Positions 1-38,486 of a DNA stretch of 64,000 nt are shown here, in pieces. How positions within the stretch are numbered: position 1 is the first letter of the stretch; every line of letters begins with the position of its first letter. Origin of the DNA: Albugo candida (taxonomy: Eukaryota); NCBI GenBank assembly GCA_040437565.1, contig JBDOQK010000007.1, positions 248,001 to 312,000 of the forward strand, in the 5' to 3' direction. A program made the position numbers and the translations under genes. The notes beneath the pieces were generated by a model that saw only the letters and a list, made by a program, of their open reading frames with translations, did not search any database and had not been told where the DNA came from.

Positions 1-282
1 ATGTACGTGCAAGGGATAGTAAATCACTGGCGATCAAAAGCGAAGAAGCATACTTTTCACCCAGCCGGAAAATCTTTTGTCAAAACGAAGCTGAAGGCTT
101 TGGCAGAGCGCGCTCGTCTTCGCGTACGGGATCGAAAGCTTCTATTGTCTGGCTCCGATCTGGACGATTTGAGGAATCGATCGATGATACAAGTGTTGTC
201 ACCATCCCATTTCGTAGGTCATTCCGATTCTACGCAGCACCTTGAAATTATATCGGAGTCAACTCCGTTGATTAATCAGTGA
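1..282 (+). CDS. 3' end of an unidentified gene running in from the left edge
   Basis: Open frame from base 1 to TGA at 280-282, convergent with the RGS gene; no recognisable domain. Confidence 0.4.
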   Translation: MYVQGIVNHWRSKAKKHTFHPAGKSFVKTKLKALAERARLRVRDRKLLLSGSDLDDLRNRSMIQVLSPSHFVGHSDSTQHLEIISESTPLINQ

Positions 283-441
283 TTCAAGAATGTATTTGAT
301 GACACATTGCATCTGCCTTTGTCTTTCTATGTATTACGTGGCCTTGACCAAGGGTAGGAATGAATCACAGAATTATTTCAAAGAACAATAGCGCGTTTTC
401 TTCTCGCAATATATTCGGTAAAAACTTTGTAAAAATCGCTG

Positions 442-1602
442 TTACATGGTCATCGCTATCTAAGCAAGAATTCAATCCGGTCAGAAAACTCGTACTTTCG
501 AGAAAAAGCTTGCTTTCTTCCTATTTGTTGGTGGCAACTCTTTCTCGAGCTTTTCCTTCAAAACTTTTTGTCCAAGCTGTGAACAGAATGGCTTTACGTC
601 CTGCTTCAGCACTGCGAGTGTGCTATCTTTGATGGGTTGGAACATAGATCGTTCCGGGCATCCAAGACGTAACTGAGCAAATTTTCGATCCAATGCAGTG
701 CATGAGACCTCAAAAGGTGATCCAGGGGCCAAGAAGTACAGATATATGTTCCATGCATACGCCTTCAAATCATCGCCTATCTTTCGATCCGCTAAATGCT
801 CGAACCGTAAAATATGATGAGTGCACTTGAGATTCTCCGCTTTGAATTCTATCAGAATATGAAAACAACTTTGACAAAACGTTCACGAAAATATGCATTT
901 ACTGTTTTCCAAGTACTCCAGCATTTCTTGAAACAAAATTTTGTCGTTCAAAATCTCGTCCAGTGAGTACTCGCTGGATGAGTTAATGCGCTCTTCTGTT
1001 AAAACTATTTTTGTTGGCAGATCATTATCAAAAGCCGCATCTTCAAGTGTATCCGTGCTCATCTTTTCAAGTGCTGCACGAAATACTGATTCCATATCTT
1101 TGAATTGAGGCGACTTCAAAAATCTGCCCAATGTATCCTTTTGAAGTGTCTTCACAGCATCTTTGACAGCAACTTCAAACAAATTTTGACGATAAACTCC
1201 AGGAAATTTCAAGCGTTCCATTGTGATCAATCGATCTTCCGATGGTAAGCTTACTTCACTAGGGGAATTAGTAGATAGAAATTCGGCCCATATAGTCTCT
1301 GCTAGGTTCTTGCATGTTACGGCGGCTTCGGGATCTCGAAAGTCGAGAATGGCACATTGATCCTTAAATTTATCAACGGCCATAAAGAAATTCAAATTCT
1401 CAGCACAGTACTATCAATACGATAAAAACAATGAGTAGATCGCAGTCAGTAAAATTTATAAGCATACTTGTTTTTGACAAAAGTCTAAGAGATAACCGCA
1501 TGAAATCGGATTTTGCACAATGTCGTCAATGGATAAATCCCGTCCTTTTTCGTCAAGTACACGTAGCAGACTCTCAATCTCATTCTTCCCTGTTCTAGAC
1601 AT
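442..1602 (-). CDS. Tandem RGS (regulator of G-protein signalling) domain protein, multi-exon
   Basis: Spliced reading gives two RGS-like repeats: 'IVQNPISCGYLLDFC..YCAENLNFFMAVDKFK..IWAEFLSTNSPSEVSL..LQKDTLGRFLKS' and 'LDEILND..AWNIYLYFLAPGSPFEVS'. ATG at 1602; 3' end approximate (442-481). Confidence 0.8.
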
Positions 1603-20636: not shown

Positions 20637-21804
20637 TTATATTGATTCAGTCTCGTATATCTGAAGCAACGCATCATCGCCTCCTGAAACCAAGCGGCTT
20701 CCAGTGGAATTGTAAGCAACACTCCAAACCTATCAGTAAAGGAATTTTCAAGACTGAAAGGCAATCTATTGTGAATCTTACTTGATCCGTATGTGTCTCG
20801 AATGTCGTCATACACTGTCTTGAACCAAGATCCCATATTTTGACTTTTTTGTCGGCACCGCTGCAAATGAAATGATAGTTAGCACCCGGCTATGTCACCA
20901 TACGTATGTGAGTGTTACGCTGAAGCAAATTGAGTCCCACTAGGCGAGTTGGCGACACATGTGACCCAGGATACGTGGCCTGATAGTGACGCCATCATGG
21001 TATGATGTGTGACATCATAGACGTTGACTTGCATGTCGTCTGAAGCTACCATCAGCATTTTTCCATCGGATGTGTATGATAACGAGCGAACGGGTTTTGT
21101 ACGATCTACATAGGTATGCACAAGTTTGCTTGTTTCGGCGTCGTAAATTCCAACGATTCCGTCGTATCCTCCATATGCGATATACTTTCCATCCGGTGAC
21201 TACAAGCAGGTTGTATTCATACAAAGTCCCGATTCGTACTGCTGAATGTTCACGTACATAGACGACGCTCATGACAAATTTCGATTCGGTCGGAATCTCA
21301 GATATGATTTTTTCTGCTTCCAGATCTATAACGTTAATCTTTGCTTTTTGACTCCCAGAGGCAACTTGGGAAGAATTGGGATGTAATGCAATCTTCCACA
21401 ATTCTCCTGAACCCACGTCAAACTTTTTTATTGTGGTCCCATTTTTCAAATCGAGCACACGTATATGGCAATCGAGTGAGCTTGTGATCGCCCTCGAGTT
21501 TTGTGCGCCAGTAATTGAAAGAATTCCAAGATTATGGCCTGAAATCTCGTGTATTGGTGATATTGCATCCAGGTCCGCTTGCCTATAACATTTCTTCAGG
21601 TGAGATATTCACGAGAGATGCTCGTATTACCATGCTTTGGCATTCTCATCCACGGAGCCGGTCAAAATGACGTTATTGCTGGTCCAAAATGTACTCCATA
21701 TACCGTCTGTATGGGCATTTGGTACTGATAGTGATGCCCGTAGCTATAAAAAGACAGAATACATAACTAATACATCCTCAGATGACAACTCGGTGACGTA
21801 CCAT
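20637..21804 (-). CDS. WDR61: WD40 protein WDR61/SKI8
   Basis: '[21 protein letters not shown]', '[12 protein letters not shown]', '[11 protein letters not shown]', '[12 protein letters not shown]', '[19 protein letters not shown]'. Confidence 0.88.
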
Positions 21805-23845
21805 GAATTCCGCAGATAAGTACCAGTACTTATCAGTGGCTATGATAAAGAAAGTAAAAATAGATCAAACGCAAAGATGCGGAAAGAATACTTATTTTGG
21901 CATTCACATACGCAATAAATTAGTCCTACATCTATATCATTCGGCAACATTCTATCATGGATATATCACCTTCTCAATTGCTGAATCGAGAGCTTGAAGC
22001 ACTGTCTGACACAGTCAATCTATGCAATCCAGTTACATTTTATCATACTAATGATTGGTAAGTCACTTGGTCTTTTGATACACTTAATCTAATACCGGAA
22101 ATGTTTAGGAAAAGCTCATCTCAACATGCATTGTCAGTGGCAAAGAAGGAGGATGGGTACATCGCGCGATTGCCCGATACATTCATACTTACAGAAGAAA
22201 TGAAACACGTAGCTAGCAAGAATGCAACTTTCTTGAATATCGAAAAAATGAAACACTCAACTTCAACGCTATTACCAAACAAAGTACCTCCCAGGACCAT
22301 GCAGCGCAGTCATTTGAATGGTATTCTTGCAGGTCTTCCAGGAAGCAAGACTGCTCCCACGAGTAGCTACACAAGAGANNNNNNNNNNNNNNNNNNNNNN
22401 NNNNNNNNNNNNNNNNNNNNNNNNNNNNNNNNNNNNNNNNNNNNNNNNNNNNNNNNNNNNNNNNNNNNNNNNNNNNNNACATCATAGACGTTGACTTGCA
22501 TGTCGTCTGAAGCTACCATCAGCATTTTTCCATCGGATGTGTATGACAACGAGCGAACGGGTTTTGTACGATCTACATAGGTATGCACAAGTTTGCTTGT
22601 TTCGGCGTCGTAAATTCCAACGATTCCGTCGTATCCTCCATATGCGATATACTTTCCATCCGGTGACTACAAGCAGGTTGTATTCATACAAAGTCCCGAT
22701 TCGTACTGCTGAATGTTCACGTACATAGACGACGCTCATGACAAATTTCGATTCGGTCGGAATCTCAGATATGATTTTTTCTGCTTCCAGATCTATAACG
22801 TTAATCTTTGCTTTTTGACTCCCAGAGGCAACTTGGGAAGAATTGGGATGTAATGCAATCTTCCACAATTCTCCTGAACCCACGTCAAACTTTTTTATTG
22901 TGGTCCCATTTTTCAAATCGAGCACACGTATATGGCAATCGAGTGAGCTTGTGATCGCCCTCGAGTTTTGTGCGCCAGTAATTGAAAGAATTCCAAGATT
23001 ATGGCCTGAAATCTCGTGTATTGGTGATATTGCATCCAGGTCCGCTTGCCTATAACATTTCTTCAGGTGAGATATTCACGAGAGATGCTCGTATTACCAT
23101 GCTTTGGCATTCTCATCCACGGAGCCGGTCAAAATGACGTTATTGCTGGTCCAAAATGTACTCCATATACCGTCTGTATGGGCATTTGGTACTGATAGTG
23201 ATGCCCGTAGCTATAAAAAGACAGAATACATAACTAATACATCCTCAGATGACAACTCGGTGACGTACCATGAATTCCGCAGATAAGTACCAGTACTTAT
23301 CAGTGGCTATGATAAAGAAAGTAAAAATAGATCAAACGCAAAGATGCGGAAAGAATACTTATTTTGGCATTCACATACGCAATAAATTAGTCCTACATCT
23401 ATATCATTCGGCAACATTCTATCATGGATATATCACCTTCTCAATTGCTGAATCGAGAGCTTGAAGCACTGTCTGACACAGTCAATCTATGCAATCCAGT
23501 TACATTTTATCATACTAATGATTGGTAAGTCACTTGGTCTTTTGATACACTTAATCTAATACCGGAAATGTTTAGGAAAAGCTCATCTCAACATGCATTG
23601 TCAGTGGCAAAGAAGGAGGATGGGTACATCGCGCGATTGCCCGATACATTCATACTTACAGAAGAAATGAAACACGTAGCTAGCAAGAATGCAACTTTCT
23701 TGAATATCGAAAAAATGAAACACTCAACTTCAACGCTATTACCAAACAAAGTACCTCCCAGGACCATGCAGCGCAGTCATTTGAATGGTATTCTTGCAGG
23801 TCTTCCAGGAAGCAAGACTGCTCCCACGAGTAGCTACACAAGAGA
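21012..23845. repeat. 1367-bp direct duplication across N-gap (21012-22378 = 22479-23845), probable assembly overlap
   Basis: Identical by eye except T21080/C22547; copies abut the 100-N gap. Confidence 0.9.
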
Positions 23846-24218: not shown

Positions 24219-25391
24219 ATGACAGAGCGTTTAAGCATTCAGGACGCAAACGATGATAATGATGCAAGTGTGATTCGAATCACTCAGTACGGAAAGTATA
24301 GAAAATATGTCACATACGCGACTGCCTTATTCAATGTAAGCTTTCGTACTTGCTTAGCTCTTCACCGGTAGCTAAAGATCCTTGTACCGTAGGAGAAAAA
24401 CGTCAGACATGTCCAATTAAAAGCCATGGGGTCGGCCATCAGCACGGCAATACAAGTAGCGGAGACTCTAAAGGAATCTGTGATTCATTTACATCAATCG
24501 ACAAAAATTGGATTGGCAGATGTTGCTTCCGATGTTTCTGCAAGAAATGAGTTTGTGAGAAGTGATCGAAAGAGGCAAACGCCATACATGTTCATCCATT
24601 TGTCTTTGGATGTTATTGATTCTTCAGTAAACAATAGAGACTCACAAAATCGTGAAGGAAACNNNNNNNNNNNNNNNNNNNNNNNNNNNNNNNNNNNNNN
24701 NNNNNNNNNNNNNNNNNNNNNNNNNNNNNNNNNNNNNNNNNNNNNNNNNNNNNNNNNNNNNNGGTAGCTAAAGATCCTTGTACCGTAGGAGAAAAACGTC
24801 AGACATGTCCAATTAAAAGCCATGGGGTCGGCCATCAGCACGGCAATACAAGTAGCGGAGACTCTAAAGGAATCTGTGATTCATTTACATCAATCGACAA
24901 AAATTGGATTGGCAGATGTTGCTTCCGATGTTTCTGCAAGAAATGAGTTTGTGAGAAGTGATCGAAAGAGGCAAACGCCATACATGTTCATCCATTTGTC
25001 TTTGGATGTTATTGATTCTTCAGTAAACAATAGAGACTCACAAAATCGTGAAGGAAACAAACGTTTCGGCGATGCAGGATCGCGAGGCACAAATAAAAGA
25101 TATGGTAGAGGTCAAAAAGGCTATGCACCGAATACTGATTCTCCTCGAGAAAATGGAGATTCATCGACTCAAGGAACGAAGTCAAGACGCCCCCGAAACA
25201 ATTCTGACAAAGTAAAACGTGAGAGAAAGCGTGAAGACCCACCTACCTCCGCACCTGAACGAGACCCGAAGGAAAAGGATCAAATCGAAAGTGCCGACGA
25301 TGGACAAGATGCTGTAACTTGGAAACGTGGAGAAAAAGCGTCGGGAAGGAATCGTCGACGTGAAATTCGTGCCAAAGTTCCAAGCAACTGA
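24219..25391 (+). CDS. Alba-domain RNA/DNA-binding protein (Rpp25-like) with Arg/Gly-rich tail
   Basis: 'IRITQYGKYRKYVTYATALF..HVQLKAMGSAISTAIQVAETLK..LHQST'; 24367-24662 is repeated at 24763-25058 across a gap. Confidence 0.85.
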
Positions 25392-25503: not shown

Positions 25504-27432
25504 ATGTCTTCCGAAAGAAGCGAGCAATTTGTTGCACCTACGCGTCTGAGCGAAGAACGTTGCATCGAACCTGAGTCATTCACTTCTCAGGACTCTAACA
25601 ATGCTCACTCGGTTCGTCCCTTTCATTCCATTTTTTACACTAAAAAGACTTGTTAATTTGACTGCTTCAAGTGTTGCATTTGTCATGAGGTCGTGCTAGC
25701 TCAACAAGGCTCACTGCCTTCTTGTGATCATATCTTTCACTTTGATTGCATAATGACATGGTCGAAAGTAACAAATCTATGCCCGTTATGTAAACAAAAA
25801 TTTAATCACATTACTGAGCGCGGAAATGCAGAAACTTTAGTGCACACACACGAGATACAAGATTGTAAACAAGTGTATGTACCCGAAGTTTCGTCCGATG
25901 AATTATTGGCGACGCAGTTACAGTTAGCTAATGATATTCGATGTGAGATTTGTGGGCGAGGAGATGATGAAGGTGTGTTGTTAGTCTGTGAGGCAGACGG
26001 ATGTCAGTTGGCAAACCACACGTACTGTATCGAGCTTGGAGCAGTTCCAGAAAGCGCTTGGTATTGTAGGCATCATCAACATGTGAGGGGTCAGCGTGCG
26101 AGTGATGCAATTGTACGACCTGCTGCAACAGTTTTGGCTCGAAGACGAACGCGGAGGTTTGCAACGTTGATGTCGAGATTTCTACAAGAAAGAGCATCCA
26201 ACAGAGATCAGAATTATGGGGTTCCCATACCCCAGAGAAGAAGTCAGGTTTCAAATCGATTGGCTGCCAACTACATCAATCGTATGTCCTTGGAACTCCA
26301 GCAAGTACAAAGGAGAGCTGAAAGAGCACGTCCTCTAGCGGGCGCGACTTTAAATCGCACTATGCGAGTACCAAGAAGAGTCCATGCAGCAAGAGAGACT
26401 AGTGGAGATGTGATCTCAACTCAGACCCCAAGAGAACCTTCAGTGAGGCAGTCCGATGTATTTTCTGCGGTAGTTGTGCGGCGGTACCGCGAGCTGGAAA
26501 AACTAATGACTGATGCGGTCAATAAAGATAACTATGCGTCAACAGTCTCACTCAACATACCAAAGACTGCTCGATTACGGCTTATATCGAGAGTAAAAGA
26601 TTTTTTTACGGCTCTTACGTTAGCAGAGAAGCGTATGGTTGTGAAATGTGGTGCTTTGGTCGCTCTGTTTTCTTGGATTCGCATCGCGACGAACGAGTCC
26701 AATGTTACGAGGACAGAAAATGCCCACCCTCAAGTTTTGGATGGGATTTTGAGCGTGATGGCAATCCTACCCATCGAGAAAGAGGATTTTGATGAGGTAC
26801 TGATATCCAATATCGTGCTCATGCTCTAAGACTTTATCATTAGGTAACTGGATTGCATTTTGCGATGTCTAAAATTGCGGACGACACAAACGCGAATTTG
26901 TCCATCCGATCCAAAGCAAGTGAGCTACGTGATGCGTACCAGAGTTTTAATCCACCCGAGAGAGCTATCATAACAGACACTGTCGTTCCAATTCCCCGTA
27001 TTTCAGACATAACTTCGACTCCGGAGGCATTACCTCCACTACCGTCGATCAAGCGATTTTTACCATCCGCGACACCAAATAGCGCCAAACGAATCAAAAC
27101 AAAGCAGTAAGCCATGATCCATAACTGCTGCAAGTTTGGACTAATCGCATATGATTGACAGAATCGTGAAGGATCCAAGCCAAAGTGCTGCAGAATATGT
27201 AAAAAGAAAATTGTATCCCTATTACAAAGAGAACAATCATAAACTATCCAAAGAACGCTACAAGACAATAGTAAGAAAAACAACAAAGACATTCATCTCC
27301 GAGTTGGAATCAGCAAAGCAAAACACCGAAAGTATGATAGCGTATGATGGACAACTGGTGCAGTCGGCAAAAGCGAGATTGAAAACGTTGTTGAACAGGG
27401 TCTTCCACGATGAAATGAGATCTCAAGTTTAG
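25504..27432 (+). CDS. RING + PHD protein with TFIIS-N-like bundle and PHRF1/SCAF11-like C-terminal domain
   Basis: RING 'CDHIFHFDCIMTWSKVTNLCPLCK'; PHD 'CEICG..LLVCE..C..HTYC..WYC'; 'LFSWI..ILSVMAILPI..RSKASEL'; 'VKRKLYPYYKE..KERYKTIVRK'. Confidence 0.8.
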
Positions 27433-27779
27433 CAGAAAGTATCTGCCAGTGCAACGCACTATGTACTTATTTTTTATAAGCGGAGTAGAAAAAAATAGCA
27501 TGTGGATAGAAATCACCGTAGGAGAACAAATGCAATCTTAACAATTACGCCTGACCGGACGCATACATGCAAGCTTAACGTGCTTGTATATCCTCATACC
27601 ATGATGCATTCAGCGACATCGTCTCCAAGCTCTCATACAGCACTTAAGCTTTAGAGCAGATACTACTTTTTGTTTCCCTTTGCTGCAGTTAGTTCATTCA
27701 GTGTTATCTAATATGCCAGCAGTTAAGTGGTAAAACAACGATATGATTCATTCCAACGGAAATCAAGCTGCTGATCTCA

Positions 27780-30257
27780 ATGAGAGAGACAAAATGGATG
27801 CGAAAAACGGAAACAACACATCAGAGGTAGTGTGTATTCTGTCACGATAGTCTCTCTTCATAAAAAATCACACGTAGAAGGCCACAACGATCACGCATCC
27901 AGCAGAAATAGTTGAAAAATTCAAACGAGTTCATCAATTGGAACGTGCAAAGTTATCGCTGGAATCATATCGTGATGATCCTGTCAACAAGCGAGCAAAG
28001 AAAAGCGGAAATGTTACAAATACGAAGAAGTTGTTACGCTGGCCAAAGACACAATGGCAGTCTTTCGAGAGGATTCCCCAGTATGCAAGAAAAATACCGT
28101 CGGGAATATGTTCTATCTTACCTATTCGTTGCCCTTTATCATCCGTGTATGTCAATGATACTGGCGACGCTGTCTCATTGCTCAGTCATTAACTGCTTTT
28201 TTAGGTATGAAATACATTATCAAAAGGGAATTGCATCCAACTATTCACCCTCAGCACTGATGGAACGGTTTCTTGACGATGCCAAAAATGGTTCAAGCTT
28301 GAATAATCTCGGTCTGGTCATTGATGCGACCGGATGTGATACTTTTCTCCATGACGCAAAGTAGGATTTTGCATCACCAATTGACGAATGAGTCTCTTTA
28401 TACCGTGGCTGATCTCAAGGGAATGGGCAGACTGGGATGTGGAGTACAAAAAACTCAACGGATCTTTTGATCTGACAAGTACGTATAAATGAGGTCACGG
28501 GAGTTTCCTCCAGTCGACAATAACTGCTTTGCTACTATGTTAAAAGGTCCAGATGACGCGAAGAAGAGAGAAGAAGAAGAGACCGTTATGGTTAATGATT
28601 TTAGCGATGTACTCTCAAAGCATTGTGCTGGTGGAAAGAAAGAGTATGATGTTGCTGTATTCGGCTTATGGGGATACAATTTGGTGGGATTCCTCATCGT
28701 AAGGTGGAGATCTTTTATGCTACGAATCGCTGCATTGACTCCCTCATGTGCTACATTTTACAGCTGGATGATTGAGAAAATGAACACAGCGTTAGATGTG
28801 GCACTTCAGCAAATTGCGACTGCTTGTCCACCTGGAATATATTCCATGTATTATCTGAAGGTATATCTGTCGCTCTTTGCCCAAACAAATTTGTAACGCT
28901 GGAAACAGAGGTTGTATCGAAAATACTTCAACGTACTATCCGATCCAACGATCCGTATTGCGTGTGCAGCTAAACCAGAATGGGATACTGTGCTGAATGA
29001 AGACGTCTCTGATGCGGATTTACGAGCTGGTATTGGCCCCGAGATTTTAACTGCGAATGACCGAGAAACGGCTTTCGTTCAAAACAGTACAAATAGCGCA
29101 GAAAGAAGCAAGATTATGACTCCAGTCTCAGAGGCCTCATCTACAAGCTCATTGACAGTCCCAGCCTATAAGCCACCAGTGTACATTCCACCAAGCCATA
29201 CGCAAAAGAAGATCCAAAAACCTCGAAAGATTCGAACTTGGGTCGAGCAAGTCTCAAAATTAGGATTTGGCGAGCATTTGGATTCCGAAGGTGAAGAATA
29301 CAAGCAAGCTATAGCATCTTTGGCAGCACTTGCAGGTATTGCCGGATTTGCTGGCTGTGAGGTAATTGAAAACAAGCGCTGGACATATCTGATGTTTCAC
29401 GATACACTGATGATAGGCAATCTCACTAACGGCAACGCATATCGGCGAAGAGGCGTACAAGCAGCGCGGATGCCTGACAGTGGCTTACCTCGTCACGTGG
29501 CGGGCTCGAGGGTATGTAGAGCACCTTCACATCTTATCAGAGTCTTAATTGTGTCTTTATCAATTATGCAGTCGTCGATGTCTACTCTATTTGGCCGATG
29601 AAGCAACATACGTCGTCTCTCGAGACATGTCGTTGACAAAAGTCAATATGAAATTCCCTCGACGACGTGCTCCAGTAAGTGTTCTCTATGTGCGATCAGT
29701 TTTTAAGCTGACTGATTTGGCCCCTTTCAAGTCAGAATTTTTGACAAATACATTGGTTGACGGCGTCTTAGTCGAGGATCAAGATCATGGCCACAAAGTC
29801 TTGCGCTTTCTTGCTTTTGACATCATCGTAATGGAGGTAATTGAATTAACAGTCTTCACTTGTATCTTCTTACCTACACGACTAGGGAGCTCCAATATGG
29901 CAGCAGAAGCTCGAGAAACGATTACAATGTCTACAAAATGAAGTGATATTACCAAAGAAGAACGACAAAATAGATATCGCTCAAAAGGAACCATTTCGTA
30001 TTCGCATGAAGGATCATTTTCGTCTTAGCAAAACTGAATACTTATTGCAAAGCTTCGTTGAATGTGTGACTCATGAGGTGGACGGGCTGGTGTTCACACC
30101 CACTGAAGCAGCGTACAACTTGGGCGGCTACGAATGTAAAGATCCCGTCTACAAATTCATTTCCAGTGAAAGCGGAGGGTGTGGTATCCCAGGATTGGAC
30201 GGTAGTATCACGAAGCGGCGATTACTGGAATATATAAAGTCCATTCCAACGAAATAG
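27780..30257 (+). CDS. mRNA capping enzyme homologue (triphosphatase-like + guanylyltransferase-like), catalytic residues substituted
   Basis: TPase-like 'LGLVIDAT', 'AVFGLWGYNLVGFLIVSWM', 'PPGIY'; GTase-like 'YLVTWRARGRR', 'TLVDG', 'RFLAFDII', 'EPFRIRMK', 'HEVDGLVFTP'. Confidence 0.8.
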
Positions 30258-30325
30258 CCATAGAACAAGATGAATACGTGTAATCTTACATTTCGATTGG
30301 AATCAAATTTGAAGCGCTTACGAAA

Positions 30326-30754
30326 TTAACGATTTTCAGCTCGATAATGCTTTCGTCCATATCGGTGTATCCGTCGCGGGGAAGAGCTTTTCGGGCTGGG
30401 TCGGGATTCTGTTGAAGACTTGTCCTTCCTCGCTGCCGACGTGGCCTTAGCGCGTGGGCTGGAGGCACTCTCACTATCGTTATTTGGTTTAGAATGGTGC
30501 TTTGTGTTTGTAGAAGCCGAGACGAAAGCTCTGGTCTCGTTTTGTTTGTCAAAATGAGGAGATGAGCGCTTAAAGACTACCGGTGTTACACGTGACTCAT
30601 TGGTGTACATCGATTTATCGTCTTCGTCGTAACGAGCGTATACAAGGGGAGTGCAGTCGTGATCGAACCAGGCAGCCTGATGGTCGATTTCTTTCTTATT
30701 CAGCTCTCTATGACAGCCACAATAACGACGGCAGCATCCCGCCACACTTCCCAT
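30326..30754 (-). CDS. Small protein with N-terminal MG + Cys cluster (predicted dual acylation)
   Basis: MGSVAGCCRRYCGC followed by a Ser/Pro/basic tail; fills the space between two + strand genes. Confidence 0.55.
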   Translation of the reverse strand: MGSVAGCCRRYCGCHRELNKKEIDHQAAWFDHDCTPLVYARYDEDDKSMYTNESRVTPVVFKRSSPHFDKQNETRAFVSASTNTKHHSKPNNDSESASSPRAKATSAARKDKSSTESRPSPKSSSPRRIHRYGRKHYRAENR

Positions 30755-31098
30755 ACTTTACGCTCAATCAATGTGAGACTATTGATACGTTTATGCGGAT
30801 CTGTACCCTCGAGTCTATTTTGCTCGTACTCGACCCTTGCGGAAGAAGGCTGTAGACTTGACGTGATTATAGATTGCTATGTCGACCAACATGAAAGCGA
30901 AGGCACTTCACCGCTTGCGATAGTATCGCTGAGAGAACTTTTTTTATATAAGCCGCTGCTTTGATATGTATCAATTGAAACGCTTGCCTATCACTGAGAC
31001 GATGATAATAGATGCATGTGGAATACACCTCTCATCATCGCGTGTTCGCCGTCCGATATTGACAGTTGTTGCTTGTCTATAAATAAGGTTGCAGGCAT

Positions 31099-33163
31099 CA
31101 TGAGAATCCCTGAGATTGTAGAACAAGATGGGCTCGTAGCGAATCTATTTCACTATCTTTGGAGCAAAGACGACGCTGGTAATGGACCACGGGTGAATCT
31201 TCCGCATACTATTCTATACGCTTCAGGACAACCACTTTCGTGGTATTTCACTTCCTTGAAAACCGGAAGAGTAAAGCGAAAACATTCTGCTCACATGACC
31301 GACGCACATATTGAGCGTTCATTTTTGAAAGATAAGAAATCGGCAAGTGATATCGTTGCCTACTACATTTACACCCTTCACCATGAAGACAATAAAGCCC
31401 ATACTCTCGCATCACATGTTTCAGACTCAGTTCATGACGACAGTAGTTCGATTCAGCCAGCAACGATCGAGTACTTTGACACTTCGGGTCTGCGCGATTT
31501 CTTTAAGCGATGCGAGGAAGGTAGGAATCATTCGGGGGTTCTTCAAAGGTTTATCACACCCAAAACCAACCATAATTCTGGTATTCGAGCAATCTGGTCG
31601 CCTCGGATATGTCTCGTTGATCGTCGTACGAATCGATACAAATTTAATGACTCAAAGTATTCCGTGTATGAACGTGCTGTCACCTTTGACGGCCCGGAAA
31701 GTTTCTCCCGTCATGATCCTGTGCGTGGAACTCTGCTTGCCGGAGAGGTGCAATTTATATGTGAAGAGATTGCGGAACACTTGAATCGAGTCGGCTACAA
31801 AGAGAGGAGTATTTCTACTTTGGTTGTTCATTTGAAATTAGACAGTAAGGAGCGATTGTGGCTTCAGTGGTGTTCGTCCTTGCGAACGATAATGAAAACA
31901 GGGGATTCTCACGGGAATGTTCGCACGCTGAGAGGTACTGCTTCAGCGCCGCAATTGACGAAAGCTCGACCAGTCGACCTTACCACAGATCCAAAGGTTC
32001 CTGCGCACATGCTTCAAGCGGGAGCTTTGAGACGCATGCAGCCTAGTCATTCTCTTATCTCCCTAGCTTTGATACCAGAAAAAGGATTTGGCGACTTGAC
32101 GGCTTGTCCAAGCTGCGGGAACATGGTGGATAGAAATCGTATGGCCTCTACAACATACAGAAATATCATTCAGCACTATCAAAAGTTCCTGATGTATGCA
32201 CGTCTGCATTCGAGTTCCAGCTCGTCCTTTTTGCTCAAATGGCCTCCAGAGCATCAGCTTGTTCAAGCTGCTGGCGGCATTGGATTTGGGATCTTACCAG
32301 CCCTGATGGAGATGCGAAAATCTGCACATATGAATGCCATCGCGCATCACGATTCAAGCAGAGAAGTAAGCAATTTGACTCCAAAATCGACCCGATGCAC
32401 TGTGGGGCTATACTCGGAGCGAGATTGGATGATTCCACCGGTTCTGCAGCATTTACATCCTTCATGGACTATGGAGGACTACGAACGATACCGCCACGAC
32501 CCAATGTGCATGCAAAAACTTATCGCTGTCTGCGAAACTTGCTGCCTGACGTATTTTGACTACGCAACCAATGCCTTGGAGCTCAACAACTCTCTTCACA
32601 CAGAGACACCGATCACATTGCGACCCCGCGAAAATGTAGACTTGCTGTATCCGATGAATCGGAAGATGTGCTCAAAGGCGAAGAAAAGGCTTTTTCCGAT
32701 ACCTCAGAGAAAACTTGGAGTAGGACGACATTGTCAGCAGAGTTTATCTACAAGTCGTAAAGCTGCGAATAAGGAATCCTGGAAACCAATTCCAGCCCCA
32801 GCAAAAAATCCACAAAGCCAGGTAGGTGGACCATCGACTCTGGAAGGGACTACCCAGCGAGAGTTTTCATCACGCGCGGATGGAGCGATCATATCCTCCA
32901 CGAGCATATACGCCCAAACGGTGGTATTTCCTCCGACAGAAGATGATTGCTTCGACTTGCTCGAAGACATGGCTGAGGATTTTTTACCGGCTACGCTCGC
33001 GAGATGCAACATGATGGAAGCTGATCTGCTTTTCAATAAATTTGTCGACATGAAATCGTCAAGCAGTCAGATACGCGAACAATTGGAAGCCGTGAAGGAT
33101 AGCTCATCCAATGCAAATATTTCAAATACATACAAAAAAGTTAGGCATAAAAGAGAACGATGA
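31099..33163 (+). CDS. Uncharacterised ~690-aa intronless protein, possible ATP-grasp-like N-terminal domain
   Basis: Long ORF (31016-33163); globular N-terminal region with 'GVLQRFITPK', 'LKLDSKERLWLQWC'; CPSC and CETC pairs. Confidence 0.7.
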
Positions 33164-34038: not shown

Positions 34039-36115
34039 ATGACTTTCACACTTTTGAACGCATTTGATTCACGTGTACACAATTTGATAGAACAAGCACT
34101 TGGTGATCGTCTTCCATTTCCATCGTATGAAGTGCCCCAAAGTAAGATCAAAAGTACTCATCAGTCGAGCAAGTACGCGCATGAAAGTCGGTCTTTCGAG
34201 GCTTTAAATCCTTCAGAGTGCTTTTGTACGTAACGAATATGCACATTGACTCGTACTCTGTCGTAATTATGTACAAGTGCTCAGCGCAAAGGAATCGCAG
34301 GGAATTCTTATTCGGTCCGATTTTGTCGTGACCGATTTGGCCAAATGCGTATACAATGGCATCCGCTCCACAACTTACGTTGACGATTCAGTGTATCGCA
34401 CTGCCAACATTGGACATGGGCAACGCTCGAGAACGGACCTTAATGCGCGCGGTGATCGCATTCATTGGATTGCTACGCAGAATCACTCCTATTTTCCAGC
34501 TCTGCTGCAGTTGCTGGACGCAATTCGATCGCTGATTTTAGGTACGCGCGGAACGTATAGAGGTCAGCATTGAGCTCATTTTCCTTGTAAGATAACTCTT
34601 TGCTTGTCGAAAAATTCCAACTCGTCAAAGATCGTACCTCTTCACAAATCGCCATCTTTGTATGGAGCTATAGAGTAGCTGATACACGCAAGTACTTATA
34701 TGACGTTATTTTGTGTTCAAGGACGATGGGAGTCGATTCGTACGCCATACGGATGTATGTCATGTGGACCAAGCGACGGAGTTGAATCCTCTTGTACGAA
34801 AAATCACCTGTGTTTATTACGTAAATGCCGTATGGAACCCAGACGATGGAGGATGTTTGCGGCTTTATTACCAAGACAAGTACAGCCTGAGCGAGAAAGC
34901 GTGGGATATAGCTCCAGAGTTGAATACATTAGTGATTTTTCGGAGTGAGGATGTAGAACATGAAGTCTTGCCAACATCGAAGGATCGACTTGCAATCACG
35001 ACGTGGTTTTATGGGCTGAAAGATCCGATTTTGGAGAAAACCTCTCAGACTCCGACAATCTTTGTTGGGATTCCATCGTATCGCGATCCCGAATGCTCCA
35101 AAACAGTCGATGATTTACTGCAAAAGGCAGCTTCCCCGGAAAGTATTTATATTGGTATTTGTATGCAATGCGAGGAAGCCGCACCCGAATATCGCTACCT
35201 TGCTGGGGAGAAATTCAGAGGCCGAGTCCGTATCGACTGGATGGATTACAAAGATGCTGCAGGCCCATGCATTGCTCGACATCGTGTGCAAGCTTTGTGG
35301 AATAAAGAGCAATATTACTTACAAATAGATAGTCACATGCGCTTTGCCGAAAGATGGGATGAATTTCTGCTGGAAGAGTTAGCGAAATGTCCGTCAGAAA
35401 AAGCGATATTGACGTCCTATCCTCCAGAATATCATCTTTCAGCTTATAAAGGCGACGCTCACCCTCACGCTTGCGATGATGGCCAACTTATTTCGCCGAT
35501 CACAAAACCAACGCTTTTATGTGCTTCACATTTCGATGGTAGTGGGATGTTGCGTCAGACGGGAAGACTAGTCCAAAAACCTCACAACGGGTAAGCGACT
35601 TGACTTTTGTATTGATGAAATGACGTATTTGTCCTGGCAGCCCGATCCCGTCTTCATTTTGGGCGGCTGGATTTGCTTTTTCCTCAGCAGCAGTGATTGA
35701 AGAAATCCCATATGATCCTTTCATGCAATTTCTTTTCTTTGGGGAAGAAATTGCAATGGGCAGTCGACTTTGGACGTGGGGTTGGGATTTCTTTGCACCG
35801 ACGAAGAGTGTCATATACCATCGCTGGTCGAGGGCCTATCGGCCTGTGTTTCAAGACTTGGAAGATACACAGACTGGGCGTTATCGTGTAAAGTCACAAG
35901 CTCGAACCCGTTCTTTGATGCAGGGAAAGCTGACTGGGAAATATGCGCTTGGACACGAGCGATCATTTGAAGCATACGAAGCACTCATTGGAGTGAATAT
36001 GGAAACGAAAAAGATCGAGCAGAGAAGTCTTTGGGGCAATCTGGATCCTCGAGAATTCATTGACACATCCGCAGAAGATCGAAGCGATACTGATGCAAGG
36101 AATCAGCACGAATGA
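34039..36115 (+). CDS. Fusion of PHD/EglN-type prolyl 4-hydroxylase and Skp1-hydroxyproline GlcNAc transferase (PhyA-Gnt1-like)
   Basis: 2OG-Fe(II) motifs 'RGDRIHWI', 'FVRHTD', 'RKITCVYYVN..GGCLRLY', 'HEVLPT..RLAITTWF' run in one exon into Gnt1-like 'TIFVGIPSYRDPEC', 'GPCIAR', 'YLQIDSHMRF', 'FWAAGFAF', 'LFFGEE..RLWTWGWDFFAP'. Confidence 0.92.
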
Positions 36116-36165: not shown

Positions 36166-37998
36166 CTAAACCTCAAGCGTAAGATTCGTATAAATTCGCA
36201 AAATATCATCCACGGGACCCGCCGGCATACTCGATGCCATTCCATAGATTGCACTGCCACCTTTAATTGCTCCATCGGGATCTTTTTTCACCGTGATCAC
36301 AGCTTCCTCTAGATCTCTCAAAAAGTTCTTAGCGGCTCGCAAATGACACATGGTCACACATATATGCAATGAGTGTGGATGTTGCAGAGCATTCAGACTC
36401 CAACCACGCTTTGTCATTTCATCATTGACCTTGAGTATGTTGAATTCATGGCTTGCAAATGCGACAACCATGAGTTGAGGGTCGCCCAGAACGTGCAGTC
36501 CATCGATTTTCTTGATTCCTTCCTTGATCTCTTCTGCGGTCTTGACAATTCCTTCCGCATTTTTGATAAAGCCTGCCTCTCCTAAACGGATTAAAGAGGT
36601 CCAAGCGGTTGCGCTTAATGCTCCTGATCGACTTCCGGCTATTGTTGGTGTAACATACAGTCCACCAGTCCAGTCGGGGAATGTAAAGTACTGATAATTG
36701 CGGATCGCTTTGTTCCGGTAAAGTACGAGGGATGTTCCTTTCGCAGCATAGCCATACTTGTGAGCATCGCAGGACATGCTTGTCACTCCAGGTAATACAA
36801 AATCATACTTTGGAAGATTTGGTCGAATGCGCTTGATAAACGGCAAGATAAATCCTCCCAGGCAGCAGTCCACGTGTAGCCCAATGTCATTATCCTTGGC
36901 AATCCTAGATAGCTTTTCGACGTCGTCAATGATCCCACTGGGAAAGTTTGGAGCGCTCGCATATATCATGATCGTGTTTGCAGTGATGTTCCATTTGACC
37001 GCATTGCAGTCCATTTTCATTGTGACTGGGTTCACTGGGACCTTGATTAGCTTGATTTTGAGTATGCTGCATGCTTTGTCGATGGCGGCATGGGCAGTTT
37101 GGGCGGCGATTATTTCTGGTTTGATTATGCTGTGCTTGTGATAATACCATTCTCGATGCGTTTTGGCGGCCAAGAGGATGCTTTCTGTGCCTCCCGATGA
37201 GAAACATCCACACACATCAGCATTGCCTCCGCTGAATAATTTCGTGGTCATCGCAATCACCTGAGCTTCCATTCTGCATACACTCGGCCACAAATCAGGA
37301 TGCAGCGGATTCGCGACAGAAAACAGCTCGAAGGCTTTGTTCAGTACTGCCAAATGTTCGTCTCCACCGTGGTAAACAGCGCCCGAGACTAGACCTTTTT
37401 TCCATTTTTCGTCCGCATTCCCCGCATACATTTTCAGTTCCTTAATCAGTGCGTCATCAGGCATACCCTGAGCCGGTAGTTCCACATATTCTGTCAATTC
37501 CTGCCCGTCCTGCGATTTTTTCAGAGCCTTTTGTATATCGACTTCAATTGATTTCATCCGCTTTTCCATTTTTGAAGCTATCCATGGAACATTCTTCCCC
37601 GTGTCGATCAATGCGCCACCAAACGTGTTCAAAAGCTGCTTGTAAGACACGTAACGAACTTTTCGAACGACATCAAGCGATTGTCCGAGAGTACGAAATA
37701 TCAAAAGCACAACTATCACATTTCCTATTATTTTTTCAGCGTCCGGAGACTCTTTGATGAGTAATTGCCAGAAATGCGATAATAAGCTTTGACCTTTGAC
37801 AAAATAAAATGAGTAGATCGCTACGGCCAAAAGTATTGTGTCGTGACTCTTGTGCAGTATCCGTTCAACGTTGAATGGGAGAGAAACACACCTTGTACCG
37901 ATGTAGAGCATTATGAGAGTCACAATGGTGCCCCCAATGTATGGTTCTAAAGCCTTCAGCTCGGAAAACGGGCATTCTGTATGCGTCTCTGCGAACAT
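36166..37998 (-). CDS. SGPL1: Sphingosine-1-phosphate lyase (PLP-dependent), intronless
   Basis: 'VSGAVYHG', 'ANPLHPDLWP', 'SGGTESILLA', 'LHVDCCLGGF', PLP lysine 'SCDAHKYG', 'PTIAGSRSG'; N-terminal TM segments. Confidence 0.95.
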   Translation of the reverse strand: MFAETHTECPFSELKALEPYIGGTIVTLIMLYIGTRCVSLPFNVERILHKSHDTILLAVAIYSFYFVKGQSLLSHFWQLLIKESPDAEKIIGNVIVVLLIFRTLGQSLDVVRKVRYVSYKQLLNTFGGALIDTGKNVPWIASKMEKRMKSIEVDIQKALKKSQDGQELTEYVELPAQGMPDDALIKELKMYAGNADEKWKKGLVSGAVYHGGDEHLAVLNKAFELFSVANPLHPDLWPSVCRMEAQVIAMTTKLFSGGNADVCGCFSSGGTESILLAAKTHREWYYHKHSIIKPEIIAAQTAHAAIDKACSILKIKLIKVPVNPVTMKMDCNAVKWNITANTIMIYASAPNFPSGIIDDVEKLSRIAKDNDIGLHVDCCLGGFILPFIKRIRPNLPKYDFVLPGVTSMSCDAHKYGYAAKGTSLVLYRNKAIRNYQYFTFPDWTGGLYVTPTIAGSRSGALSATAWTSLIRLGEAGFIKNAEGIVKTAEEIKEGIKKIDGLHVLGDPQLMVVAFASHEFNILKVNDEMTKRGWSLNALQHPHSLHICVTMCHLRAAKNFLRDLEEAVITVKKDPDGAIKGGSAIYGMASSMPAGPVDDILRIYTNLTLEV

Positions 37999-38486
37999 GA
38001 TCTTTCGAAGGGTACCGTTCCGCCTCCAATTGTACTCTTTTATTTTTTAGGATCGAATGGATTTATGCACTACTTAGTGTTTCNNNNNNNNNNNNNNNNN
38101 NNNNNNNNNNNNNNNNNNNNNNNNNNNNNNNNNNNNNNNNNNNNNNNNNNNNNNNNNNNNNNNNNNNNNNNNNNNNNNNNNNNGGATCGAATGGATTTAT
38201 GCACTACTTAGTGTTTCACATAGAGTTTTATAGCTCCACACAAAATTCCAGTCAGGGTGAAATCTCTTTTGACTCCATGCGCTCAAATATCGAAGTACGA
38301 TAACAATTATCTACTCTTGCATAAGCAAACGATCCAGACCTCGAAGGATGCCTTGATTTACATAGTTGTCGAGTCAATGGCAATTCGGCGATCACGCTGC
38401 TTTATAGATATCACCAGTTATATCTCGTCGAGGAATAACCGATAAACTGCGGCCAATTGAATCAGGTCAATACCATCTGCATCCGG

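Follow-up and report, generated by a model that had tools for sequence, protein, structure and literature searches.

The 64,000-nucleotide stretch of Albugo candida DNA analysed here (the window: positions 248,001 to 312,000 of the forward strand of contig JBDOQK010000007.1, assembly GCA_040437565.1; all coordinates below count from its first letter) carries on its + strand a gene of 11 exons, at 27743..30257, whose product joins a phosphatase-like domain to a guanylyltransferase-like domain in the layout of a bifunctional mRNA capping enzyme. The catalytic residues of both active sites are replaced in this capping-enzyme-like protein, the oligonucleotide-binding (OB) fold that should close over the second of them is missing, and the replacement of the guanylyltransferase nucleophile recurs in oomycete after oomycete. 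We consider it very probable that the gene encodes a retained pseudoenzyme, and below we set out the evidence, the age of the family to which the protein belongs, and what it might do.

Gene structure and the former active sites

The gene and the elements of its product that enter the argument are the following.

27743..30257 (+): whole gene, 11 exons, stop codon included; model from sequence, introns seen in spliced contigs
27743-27826, 27878-28146, 28205-28360, 28420-28478, 28547-28703 and 28764-28860 (+): exons 1-6
28909-29361, 29417-29511, 29572-29674, 29732-29836 and 29886-30257 (+): exons 7-11
27975..28983 (+): phosphatase-like domain with the RNA triphosphatase fold, about residues 79-300, exons 2-7; from profile, VIA-align and structure model
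28660..28689 (+): P-loop remnant FGLWGYNLVG, residues 228-237; column for column over human HCTHGFNRTG
29218..29235 (+): basic stretch KPRKIR, residues 378-383; K378, R380, K381, I382 and R383 invariant in 14 oomycete sequences
29272..30254 (+): guanylyltransferase-like nucleotidyltransferase domain with C-terminal helix, about residues 396-649, exons 7-11; from PF01331 and VIA-align
29498-29511 plus base 29572, with a 60-nt intron between (+): motif I remnant WRARG, residues 453-457; aligned to human WKADG
29759..29767 (+): motif III remnant DGV, residues 501-503, with Glu replaced by Val; LVDGVL over human LLDGEM
30081..30086 (+): motif IV Asp592-Gly593, kept; EVDGLVF over human EMDGLIF
30213..30242 (+): C-terminal helix, residues 636-645, predicted equivalent of the helix found after the OB fold in canonical enzymes; from the model and the VIA-align ranges
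30255..30257 (+): stop codon, retained in the mature transcript; unbroken contig piece 29884-30313 in runs X1 and X10 and 29884-30500 in run X3

The 10 introns, of 48-68 nt each, are all of the GT..AG type and leave a coding sequence of 1950 nt, which translates into 649 amino acids. The A. candida database protein P0001 is also 649 residues long, differs from the window translation at 3 residues and is 99% identical to it over the last exon. Translation starts at 27743, and not at 27780, where the initial annotation of this DNA had placed the start of the feature and where the ATG is out of frame. In public sequencing runs aligned over 27500-30500, the spliced contigs of X1, X3 and X10 have joints at 10 of the 10 predicted introns, every one of them GT..AG, while the DNA-like run X6 gives a single unspliced 67-kb contig with none of the ten spliced; several runs contained about 0.6 of the sampled words, the value expected of a spliced copy. 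The gene is transcribed and fully spliced, on contig evidence whose RNA origin is guessed, and the splicing that had been proposed from the letters alone is thereby confirmed. Because the spliced contigs are continuous from 29884 to at least 30313, there is no extra exon that would add an OB fold, with the reservation that rare isoforms can escape assembled contigs. Transcripts that restore KxDG or CX5R, which had been named beforehand as the result that would overturn the idea of a dead enzyme, were seen neither in the gene as spliced in these contigs nor in the DNA itself, KxDG and Cx5R(S/T) both being absent from all three forward frames of 27700-30300.

The residues at the former active sites were compared by aligning a profile of 14 oomycete orthologues (alignment A1) to human RNGTT chains; the match, at E 2.7e-52, consists of two stretches, each in one domain. 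In the phosphatase P-loop, the Cys nucleophile has become Gly229 and the Arg has become Leu235. None of 30 aligned oomycete orthologues possesses both residues (Achlya alone has Cys at the canonical position, but with Thr at the position of the Arg), and two positions of the loop are free to vary among the orthologues. In guanylyltransferase motif I, the Lys that accepts guanosine monophosphate (GMP) is replaced by Arg454 and the Asp by Arg456; the Lys of human WKADG, which we count to position 294, is the one that we take to be the nucleophile. TWRARG is found in all 27 oomycete orthologues that cover motif I, which agrees with the shared substitution that the initial annotation had proposed to look for. 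In motif III, the residue after DG is V, I or L in 31 of 31 oomycete matches, and the motif V region retains one invariant Lys, K616 (within YKFIS or FKFV), with no second Lys two residues on; the HMMER alignments to solved enzymes end before this point. One of the deposited human chains reads HSTHG, presumably a Cys-to-Ser change at the nucleophile position, which may have been made to inactivate the enzyme.

RNA triphosphatases of the cysteine-phosphatase type require the P-loop Cys and Arg, and guanylyltransferases require the motif I Lys. According to the available text of PMC4066402, the OB fold moreover has to close over the triphosphate before the Lys attacks. Because the P-loop Cys and Arg, the motif I Lys and the OB fold are all absent, catalysis of either capping step is very unlikely, and, judging from its sequence, the protein should be able neither to form enzyme-GMP nor to hydrolyse RNA triphosphate ends. 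The initial annotation had already read the P-loop at 28660-28689 as devoid of Cys and Arg, motif I after splicing as WRARG in place of KxDG with the Lys turned into Arg, and motif III as DGV in place of DGE; all three readings are borne out by the alignment to the human enzyme, and that of motif I by the spliced contigs as well.

Fold, conservation and age of the family

The structure was predicted from a 150-sequence alignment (A2), and this model replaced one built from 14 sequences, in which the guanylyltransferase (GTase) half had a predicted local distance difference test score (pLDDT) of about 30. The mean pLDDT is now 83.2, with residues 390-620 mostly above 90. The phosphatase-like half (pLDDT mostly 80-97) matches the human and mouse RNA triphosphatase domain by profile (E 1.3e-19 for 2c46_A, and 5.5e-19), and model residues 77-302 align by VIA-align to human 2c46_B with Z 21.3 (root-mean-square deviation, rmsd, 2.5; 194 residues aligned) and to 1i9s with Z 20.7, with values of about 18 against PIR1/DUSP11 and baculovirus BVP. 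The other half is recognised by PF01331 on P0001 (E 2.9e-35; 122 bits, cut-off 29.6), and model residues 388-649 align with Z 28.0 to Pce1 (4pz6_B; rmsd 2.5, 248 aligned), 27.9 to Cgt1, 27.3 to human 3s24_G and 27.2 to mouse 3rtx_A; the best ranks in Foldseek go to human RNGTT on RNA polymerase II (Pol II; 8w8f, 8p4c) and to Mce1 (3rtx), with template modelling scores of 0.79-0.82 by target. Both predicted folds thus match capping-enzyme domains, and the bifunctional layout claimed in the initial annotation holds at the level of profile (E 2.7e-52) and of structure (Z 27-28 for one half and Z 21 for the other).

The same annotation had described the protein as stopping early and lacking the OB fold, and this is what we find. 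PF03919, which describes that fold, has no match in P0001 and matches all of the canonical controls P0127, P0134 and P0043, and 57 residues follow the motif IV Gly in the Albugo protein against a median of 150.5 across 62 canonical enzymes. Beyond motif IV, the model contains a single strand (614-618) and a single helix (636-645). In the VIA-align ranges, model residues 389..647 lie on human 229..566 with 238 positions only, and 388..649 lie on Pce1 9..368; therefore, the C-terminus of the model falls on the segment after the OB fold. In the portion of PMC4066402 available to us, the C-terminal alpha helix of Pce1 (Gly350-Lys372) is described as spanning the cleft and joining the nucleotidyltransferase domain. 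When a profile of the oomycete tail was compared with 110 canonical sequences, the single matches were insignificant (best independent E-value 0.0056) and their shared position alone is informative: 18 of the best 40 sit 114-133 residues past motif IV, and they look alike (e.g., ITEKMLLQYIH in P0081). Together, the ends of the ranges and the position of this motif suggest that the OB fold, some 80 residues including motif VI, was deleted cleanly and that the returning helix was kept.

A homologue search with the last exon returned 32 proteins at E<1e-3 among 144 candidates, of which 31 (P0001-P0031) match at E <=1.1e-27 and the remaining one, P0032, is a metagenome protein. Those orthologues that bear an organism name belong to Albugo, Pythium, Globisporangium, Lagenidium, Phytophthora, Peronospora, Bremia, Hyaloperonospora, Peronosclerospora, Plasmopara, Achlya, Thraustotheca and Saprolegnia, with every sampled oomycete order represented. 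Full-length identity to the A. candida protein is 79% in A. laibachii, 50-54% in 10 sequences from Peronosporales, Pythiales and Lagenidium, and 43% in 3 Saprolegniales. Across 14 oomycete sequences, 73 of the 173 columns of the nucleotidyltransferase-like domain are invariant, and the most conserved stretch of the whole protein is the motif I block, residues 449-460, with 11 invariant columns out of 12; the phosphatase-like domain has 41 invariant columns of 222, and the linker has a mean column identity of 0.49. The end point is conserved too: 27 of the 31 orthologues, from more than 10 genera, terminate 30-33 residues past the conserved KF, and the four exceptions (58, 112 and 68 residues and, in P0040, which is a fragment, 17) seem to reflect differences between gene models. 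Within the species, the window and the contigs differ at 10 codons, 7 of them synonymous and 3 non-synonymous (C106, D207 and V524). With 432 synonymous and 1515 non-synonymous sites, this gives a ratio of non-synonymous to synonymous polymorphism per site (pN/pS) of about 0.12 (binomial P 0.0017), and the gene is clearly under purifying selection on these within-species counts. The linker-side KPRKIR stretch has a counterpart in the diatom relatives introduced below, whose consensus carries KRxK; the composition of the two suggests a nuclear localisation signal.

The profile search covered 1.84 billion representatives and gave 1792 matches at E<1e-3, the best 150 of which were examined. Both motifs can be aligned in 129 stored proteins drawn from these 150 and the last-exon matches: both sites are canonical (Cys..Arg and KxDG) in 66 and dead in 58, 3 combine a dead motif I with an intact P-loop, and 2 combine KxDG with a dead P-loop. 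In a FastTree phylogeny of the GTase domain (184 sequences), the doubly dead proteins whose tails are short (32-94 residues past motif IV) cluster together; the clade made up of the 27 oomycete sequences and their sister group of 19 members has a Shimodaira-Hasegawa-like (SH-like) support of 0.936, and a wider clade that unites the oomycetes with 28 of the 29 short-tailed dead sequences has a support of 0.961. A search with the alignment of the non-oomycete members found 57 proteins at E<1e-5 among 8000 scored candidates. Every match with an organism name is from a diatom, namely, Skeletonema marinoi (two proteins), Thalassiosira sp., T. oceanica, Cyclotella cryptica, Conticribra weissflogii and Cyclostephanos tholiformis, and the nearest neighbouring cluster in the Atlas is Bacillariophyta. 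KxDG occurs in none of the 52 newly found proteins of this diatom clade, whose tails measure 32-70 residues and whose P-loop reads FDSRGxGAAA or similar.

In a phosphatase-domain tree (148 sequences), the 29 oomycete and 42 diatom-type proteins again group together, with an SH-like support of 0.927, and P0117, P0130, P0153, P0064, P0122, P0143 and P0149 fall outside the dead clade. These seven, together with P0071 and P0126, which are not among the outliers of the phosphatase tree, constitute a deeper group of 9 that lies inside the dead clade in the GTase tree (SH-like 0.961). Because this group, with 7 of its 9 members, leaves the clade in the phosphatase-domain tree, we exclude it and claim the family for oomycetes and diatoms only. 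Since the diatom sister clade is equally dead, the family is old.

The family member P0251, from Skeletonema marinoi, reads TWLSKGR in the motif I region and LFDSRGLGAAA in the P-loop; its source name, "mRNA-capping enzyme subunit alpha," does not fit these residues. Outside the oomycete/diatom clade lie 12 further proteins (P0065, P0086, P0095, P0096, P0102, P0111, P0112, P0118, P0131, P0136, P0141 and P0152) that have a degenerate motif I, often with a degenerate P-loop, and that keep a long C-terminal part of 126-273 residues past motif IV. It seems that catalytic residues were lost more than once among capping-enzyme relatives.

A proposed binding role and its rivals

Because all catalytic parts are lost, the protein most likely works by binding rather than by chemistry. 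Its ancestor would have been a capping enzyme in which a cysteine-phosphatase RNA triphosphatase was fused to a guanylyltransferase, and both folds would have been kept while the chemistry went. In the former cleft, the acidic Asp of motif I and Glu of motif III are gone, and R454, R456, R459, R474, R487, R489, K568 and K616 are invariant in oomycetes. Given that oomycete constraint is strongest on the former active-site strand and that the cleft has shifted from acidic to basic, the old nucleotide cleft may have turned into a basic pocket for an anionic ligand, candidates for which would be the phosphorylated C-terminal domain (CTD) of Pol II, a 5' triphosphate, a cap or a guanine nucleotide; the KPRKIR stretch would direct the protein to the nucleus. 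That we are dealing with a non-catalytic descendant of the bifunctional capping enzyme, which would be nuclear and may be equipped with such a pocket, is the best overall explanation, and one that we hold to be probable, if far from assured. As to the mechanism, a nuclear reader or scaffold that uses the former guanosine triphosphate (GTP) cleft is the leading candidate, which we put forward tentatively.

The initial annotation had likewise proposed a pseudoenzyme that binds RNA 5' ends, the Pol II CTD or Spt5, or that regulates capping. The retained pseudoenzyme stands; docking on Spt5 or Pol II in the canonical manner is less likely to. In fission yeast, the Spt5 CTD is bound by the OB domain of Pce1 (available text of PMC4066402), and human RNGTT is held at the Pol II stalk through its OB fold (available text of PMC11139899), so the absence of this fold makes canonical-style docking on either Spt5 or the Pol II stalk unlikely for the Albugo protein. 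Docking of the CTD on the nucleotidyltransferase domain is possible. It is tempting to go further and to picture the fused phosphatase-guanylyltransferase layout, commonly assigned to the capping enzymes of animals and plants, as going back to the common ancestor of oomycetes and diatoms and surviving there only as a dead form without the OB fold, whose cleft was rebuilt to read phospho-CTD or nascent 5' ends as a capping checkpoint or adaptor beside a separate true capping apparatus; this extended scenario is speculative, and we regard it as doubtful.

Several observations weigh against a basic pocket as the common function of the family and against parts of the evidence on which it rests. 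In the diatom clade, the Arg of the SRD block (R474) and the aromatic residue of motif IIIa are missing from most sequences, the motif I position is variable (L, R, K, N, H or I), and a basic residue occupies the former Asp position in only 33 of 52 proteins; because this clade drops the guanine-holding residues, there is no support for a cleft function shared by all members of the family. The docking sites for the CTD differ between capping enzymes, with contacts that are not conserved between taxa (as far as the available part of PMC4066402 goes), and for this reason the sequence cannot predict a CTD site here. Both trees were computed with FastTree from fast-evolving sequences, for which long-branch attraction is possible. 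Finally, the RNA nature of X1, X3 and X10 is a software guess, no run being on record as RNA; X1 and X10 are probably one data set, as they share size, depth and differences; and the codon counts behind the within-species comparison are small.

Other explanations of the same protein have to be set beside this one. A snurportin-1-like binder of the cap or of a guanine nucleotide, for instance, a transport adaptor or a cap reader, is conceivable, yet we think it doubtful. The trimethylguanosine (m3G)-cap domain of snurportin, 1xk5, aligns to the model with Z 16.5 (rmsd 2.8, 183 residues; Foldseek E 9.1e-8), a fit far weaker than that to true capping enzymes (Z 27-28), and PF21974, although precomputed for the Achlya and Thraustotheca orthologues, matches P0001 weakly (E 0.0042) with 17.6 bits, below the cut-off of 27. 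R474, the motif IIIa aromatic F/Y520, K568 and K616, to which we ascribe roles in GTP binding, are invariant or nearly so in oomycetes, but these pocket residues are lost in the diatom clade. The protein might instead be a non-catalytic partner of an RNA triphosphatase or true capping enzyme, which it would regulate by activation or inhibition. Control of an active enzyme by a dead paralogue is a familiar pattern, and two folded domains with a highly conserved surface would suit such a partner; the Atlas also holds a second Oomycota PF01331 cluster (605 aa, 51 members), which is a lead only. Against this, neither the homologue searches nor those of the Atlas retrieved a candidate partner sequence, and we judge the idea to be unlikely.

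It is very unlikely that the protein is still active through other residues or serves as the sole capping enzyme of oomycetes. The protein does keep motif IV and one Lys of motif V, and no KxDG enzyme from Albugo or another oomycete was found in the best 150 of the 1792 profile matches, among the relatives of P0127, in the Atlas or in word-based searches. This negative, however, reflects how narrow the searches were, being word-based or limited to those 150 matches, and nothing is left of the phosphatase Cys and Arg, of the Lys nucleophile and Asp of motif I, of the Glu of motif III or of the OB fold with its motif VI. Among the best 150, P0127 has both KxDG and the OB fold; it was considered as the active oomycete enzyme and rejected, as it originates from Balamuthia and has no stramenopile among its relatives, and no Oomycota cluster appeared when the Atlas was searched with it. 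The Albugo protein would then be a paralogue only by presumption. Hardly any credence is due to a decaying pseudogene, or to a gene-model artefact in which the OB-fold exons were missed, even though every catalytic residue is lost and the C-terminus is short. The frame is open over 11 exons, the spliced transcripts are continuous through the stop, the same end point recurs in 27 of 31 orthologues from more than 10 genera, and pN/pS is about 0.12. The spliced transcript, the WRARG that is invariant across oomycetes, the low pN/pS and the diatom sister clade together argue that the gene is retained and not decaying, as the initial annotation had maintained.

If the protein is indeed a retained binder derived from a capping enzyme, a doubly dead family without the OB fold that predates the split of oomycetes and diatoms suggests a non-catalytic role for the bifunctional scaffold. 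Capping enzymes are well studied, and their domain make-up is used in arguments on deep eukaryotic relationships; to our knowledge, nobody has studied a non-catalytic job for this scaffold. Our literature search turned up no publication on an oomycete or diatom relative of the capping enzyme that is inactive, which is weak evidence because most subscription journals lay outside the search. Database names such as "mRNA-capping enzyme subunit alpha," by which metabolic and drug-target surveys of plant-pathogenic oomycetes would be misled, are put right as well. For experiments, mutation of the basic cleft and of the invariant WRARG strand offers a clear handle, and diatoms are genetically tractable.

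Around the gene, the window holds several other features. Immediately upstream, a gene at 25657-27432 (+), whose end lies 311 nt ahead of the start codon, carries a RING (E 6.4e-8) and a PHD (E 2.9e-5) domain, and its last exon-like frame (27145-27432) has a Set2 Rpb1-interacting (SRI) domain (E 3e-6). The SRI domain is a Pol II CTD-binding module and here adjoins a capping-enzyme relative, which is weak evidence, adjacency counting for little in eukaryotes. A frame of 143 amino acids at 30326-30757 (-), convergent with the capping-enzyme-like gene, and one of 721 amino acids at 30998-33163 (+) have no Pfam match at E 0.001. The spliced X3 contig extends several kb past 30500, which means that neighbouring transcripts either overlap or were fused by the assembly. 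At 34704-35591 (+), a single frame combines a 2-oxoglutarate-Fe(II) oxygenase (E 5.5e-19) with an N-acetylglucosamine transferase (PF11397, E 4.7e-32), which we take to resemble a hydroxylase-glycosyltransferase fusion of the Skp1-modification type. An Alba-domain frame at 24789-25388 (+; E 6.8e-7) and a pyridoxal-dependent decarboxylase frame at 36169-38046 (-; E 3.8e-18) look ordinary. A WD40-repeat fragment occurs twice, at 21018-21608 and 22485-23075 (-), with 590 of 591 bases identical; the two copies are 1467 nt apart and flank a run of N at 22379-22478, one of ten 100-N gaps in the window, and the pair is probably a scaffolding duplicate and not a true tandem copy.

Relation to known systems

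The closest comparison is with human RNGTT and mouse Mce1 (8p4b, 8w8f, 3s24, 3rtx, 2c46 and 1i9s), with which the Albugo protein shares the order of phosphatase fold, basic linker, nucleotidyltransferase domain and C-terminal helix, as well as motif IV and many scaffold residues. In contrast to them, it lacks the P-loop Cys and Arg, has RARG for KxDG and DGV for DGE, and is devoid of the OB fold and motif VI. Since the defining catalytic features are lacking, it does not count as a capping enzyme by function. In its phosphatase-like half, with Gly for Cys in a cysteine-phosphatase fold, it recalls the STYX-type pseudophosphatases of the protein tyrosine phosphatase/dual-specificity phosphatase (PTP/DUSP) fold, in which the nucleophile is replaced and the fold is retained under selection. 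Trapping of phosphate in the manner of STYX is doubtful here, because the P-loop Arg is lost as well and two loop positions vary freely.

For the nucleotidyltransferase half, two human proteins provide parallels. The GTase-like domain of CMTR1 is likewise a guanylyltransferase-derived fold without guanylyltransferase chemistry, and it holds CMTR1 on the Pol II stalk (available text of PMC11139899). Chain 8p4e_O, which aligns to our model with Z 16.9 (rmsd 3.5, 215 residues, chain range 552..835), is probably CMTR1, going by this residue range and by the available text of the same paper. CMTR1 differs in being fused to a methyltransferase and in having no phosphatase-like domain, its similarity to the model is far below that of RNGTT, and it was not recovered by the sequence searches. 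The m3G-cap-binding domain of snurportin-1 (1xk5) also has a guanylyltransferase-like fold without the catalytic Lys, and it binds a cap dinucleotide. The Albugo protein differs in having no importin-beta-binding region and in resembling true capping enzymes far more closely in sequence, and cap binding would be ascribed to it by analogy of fold only. By the precedents of snurportin and CMTR1, dead GTase folds can be reused for binding, and the family described here may be a further instance of such reuse.

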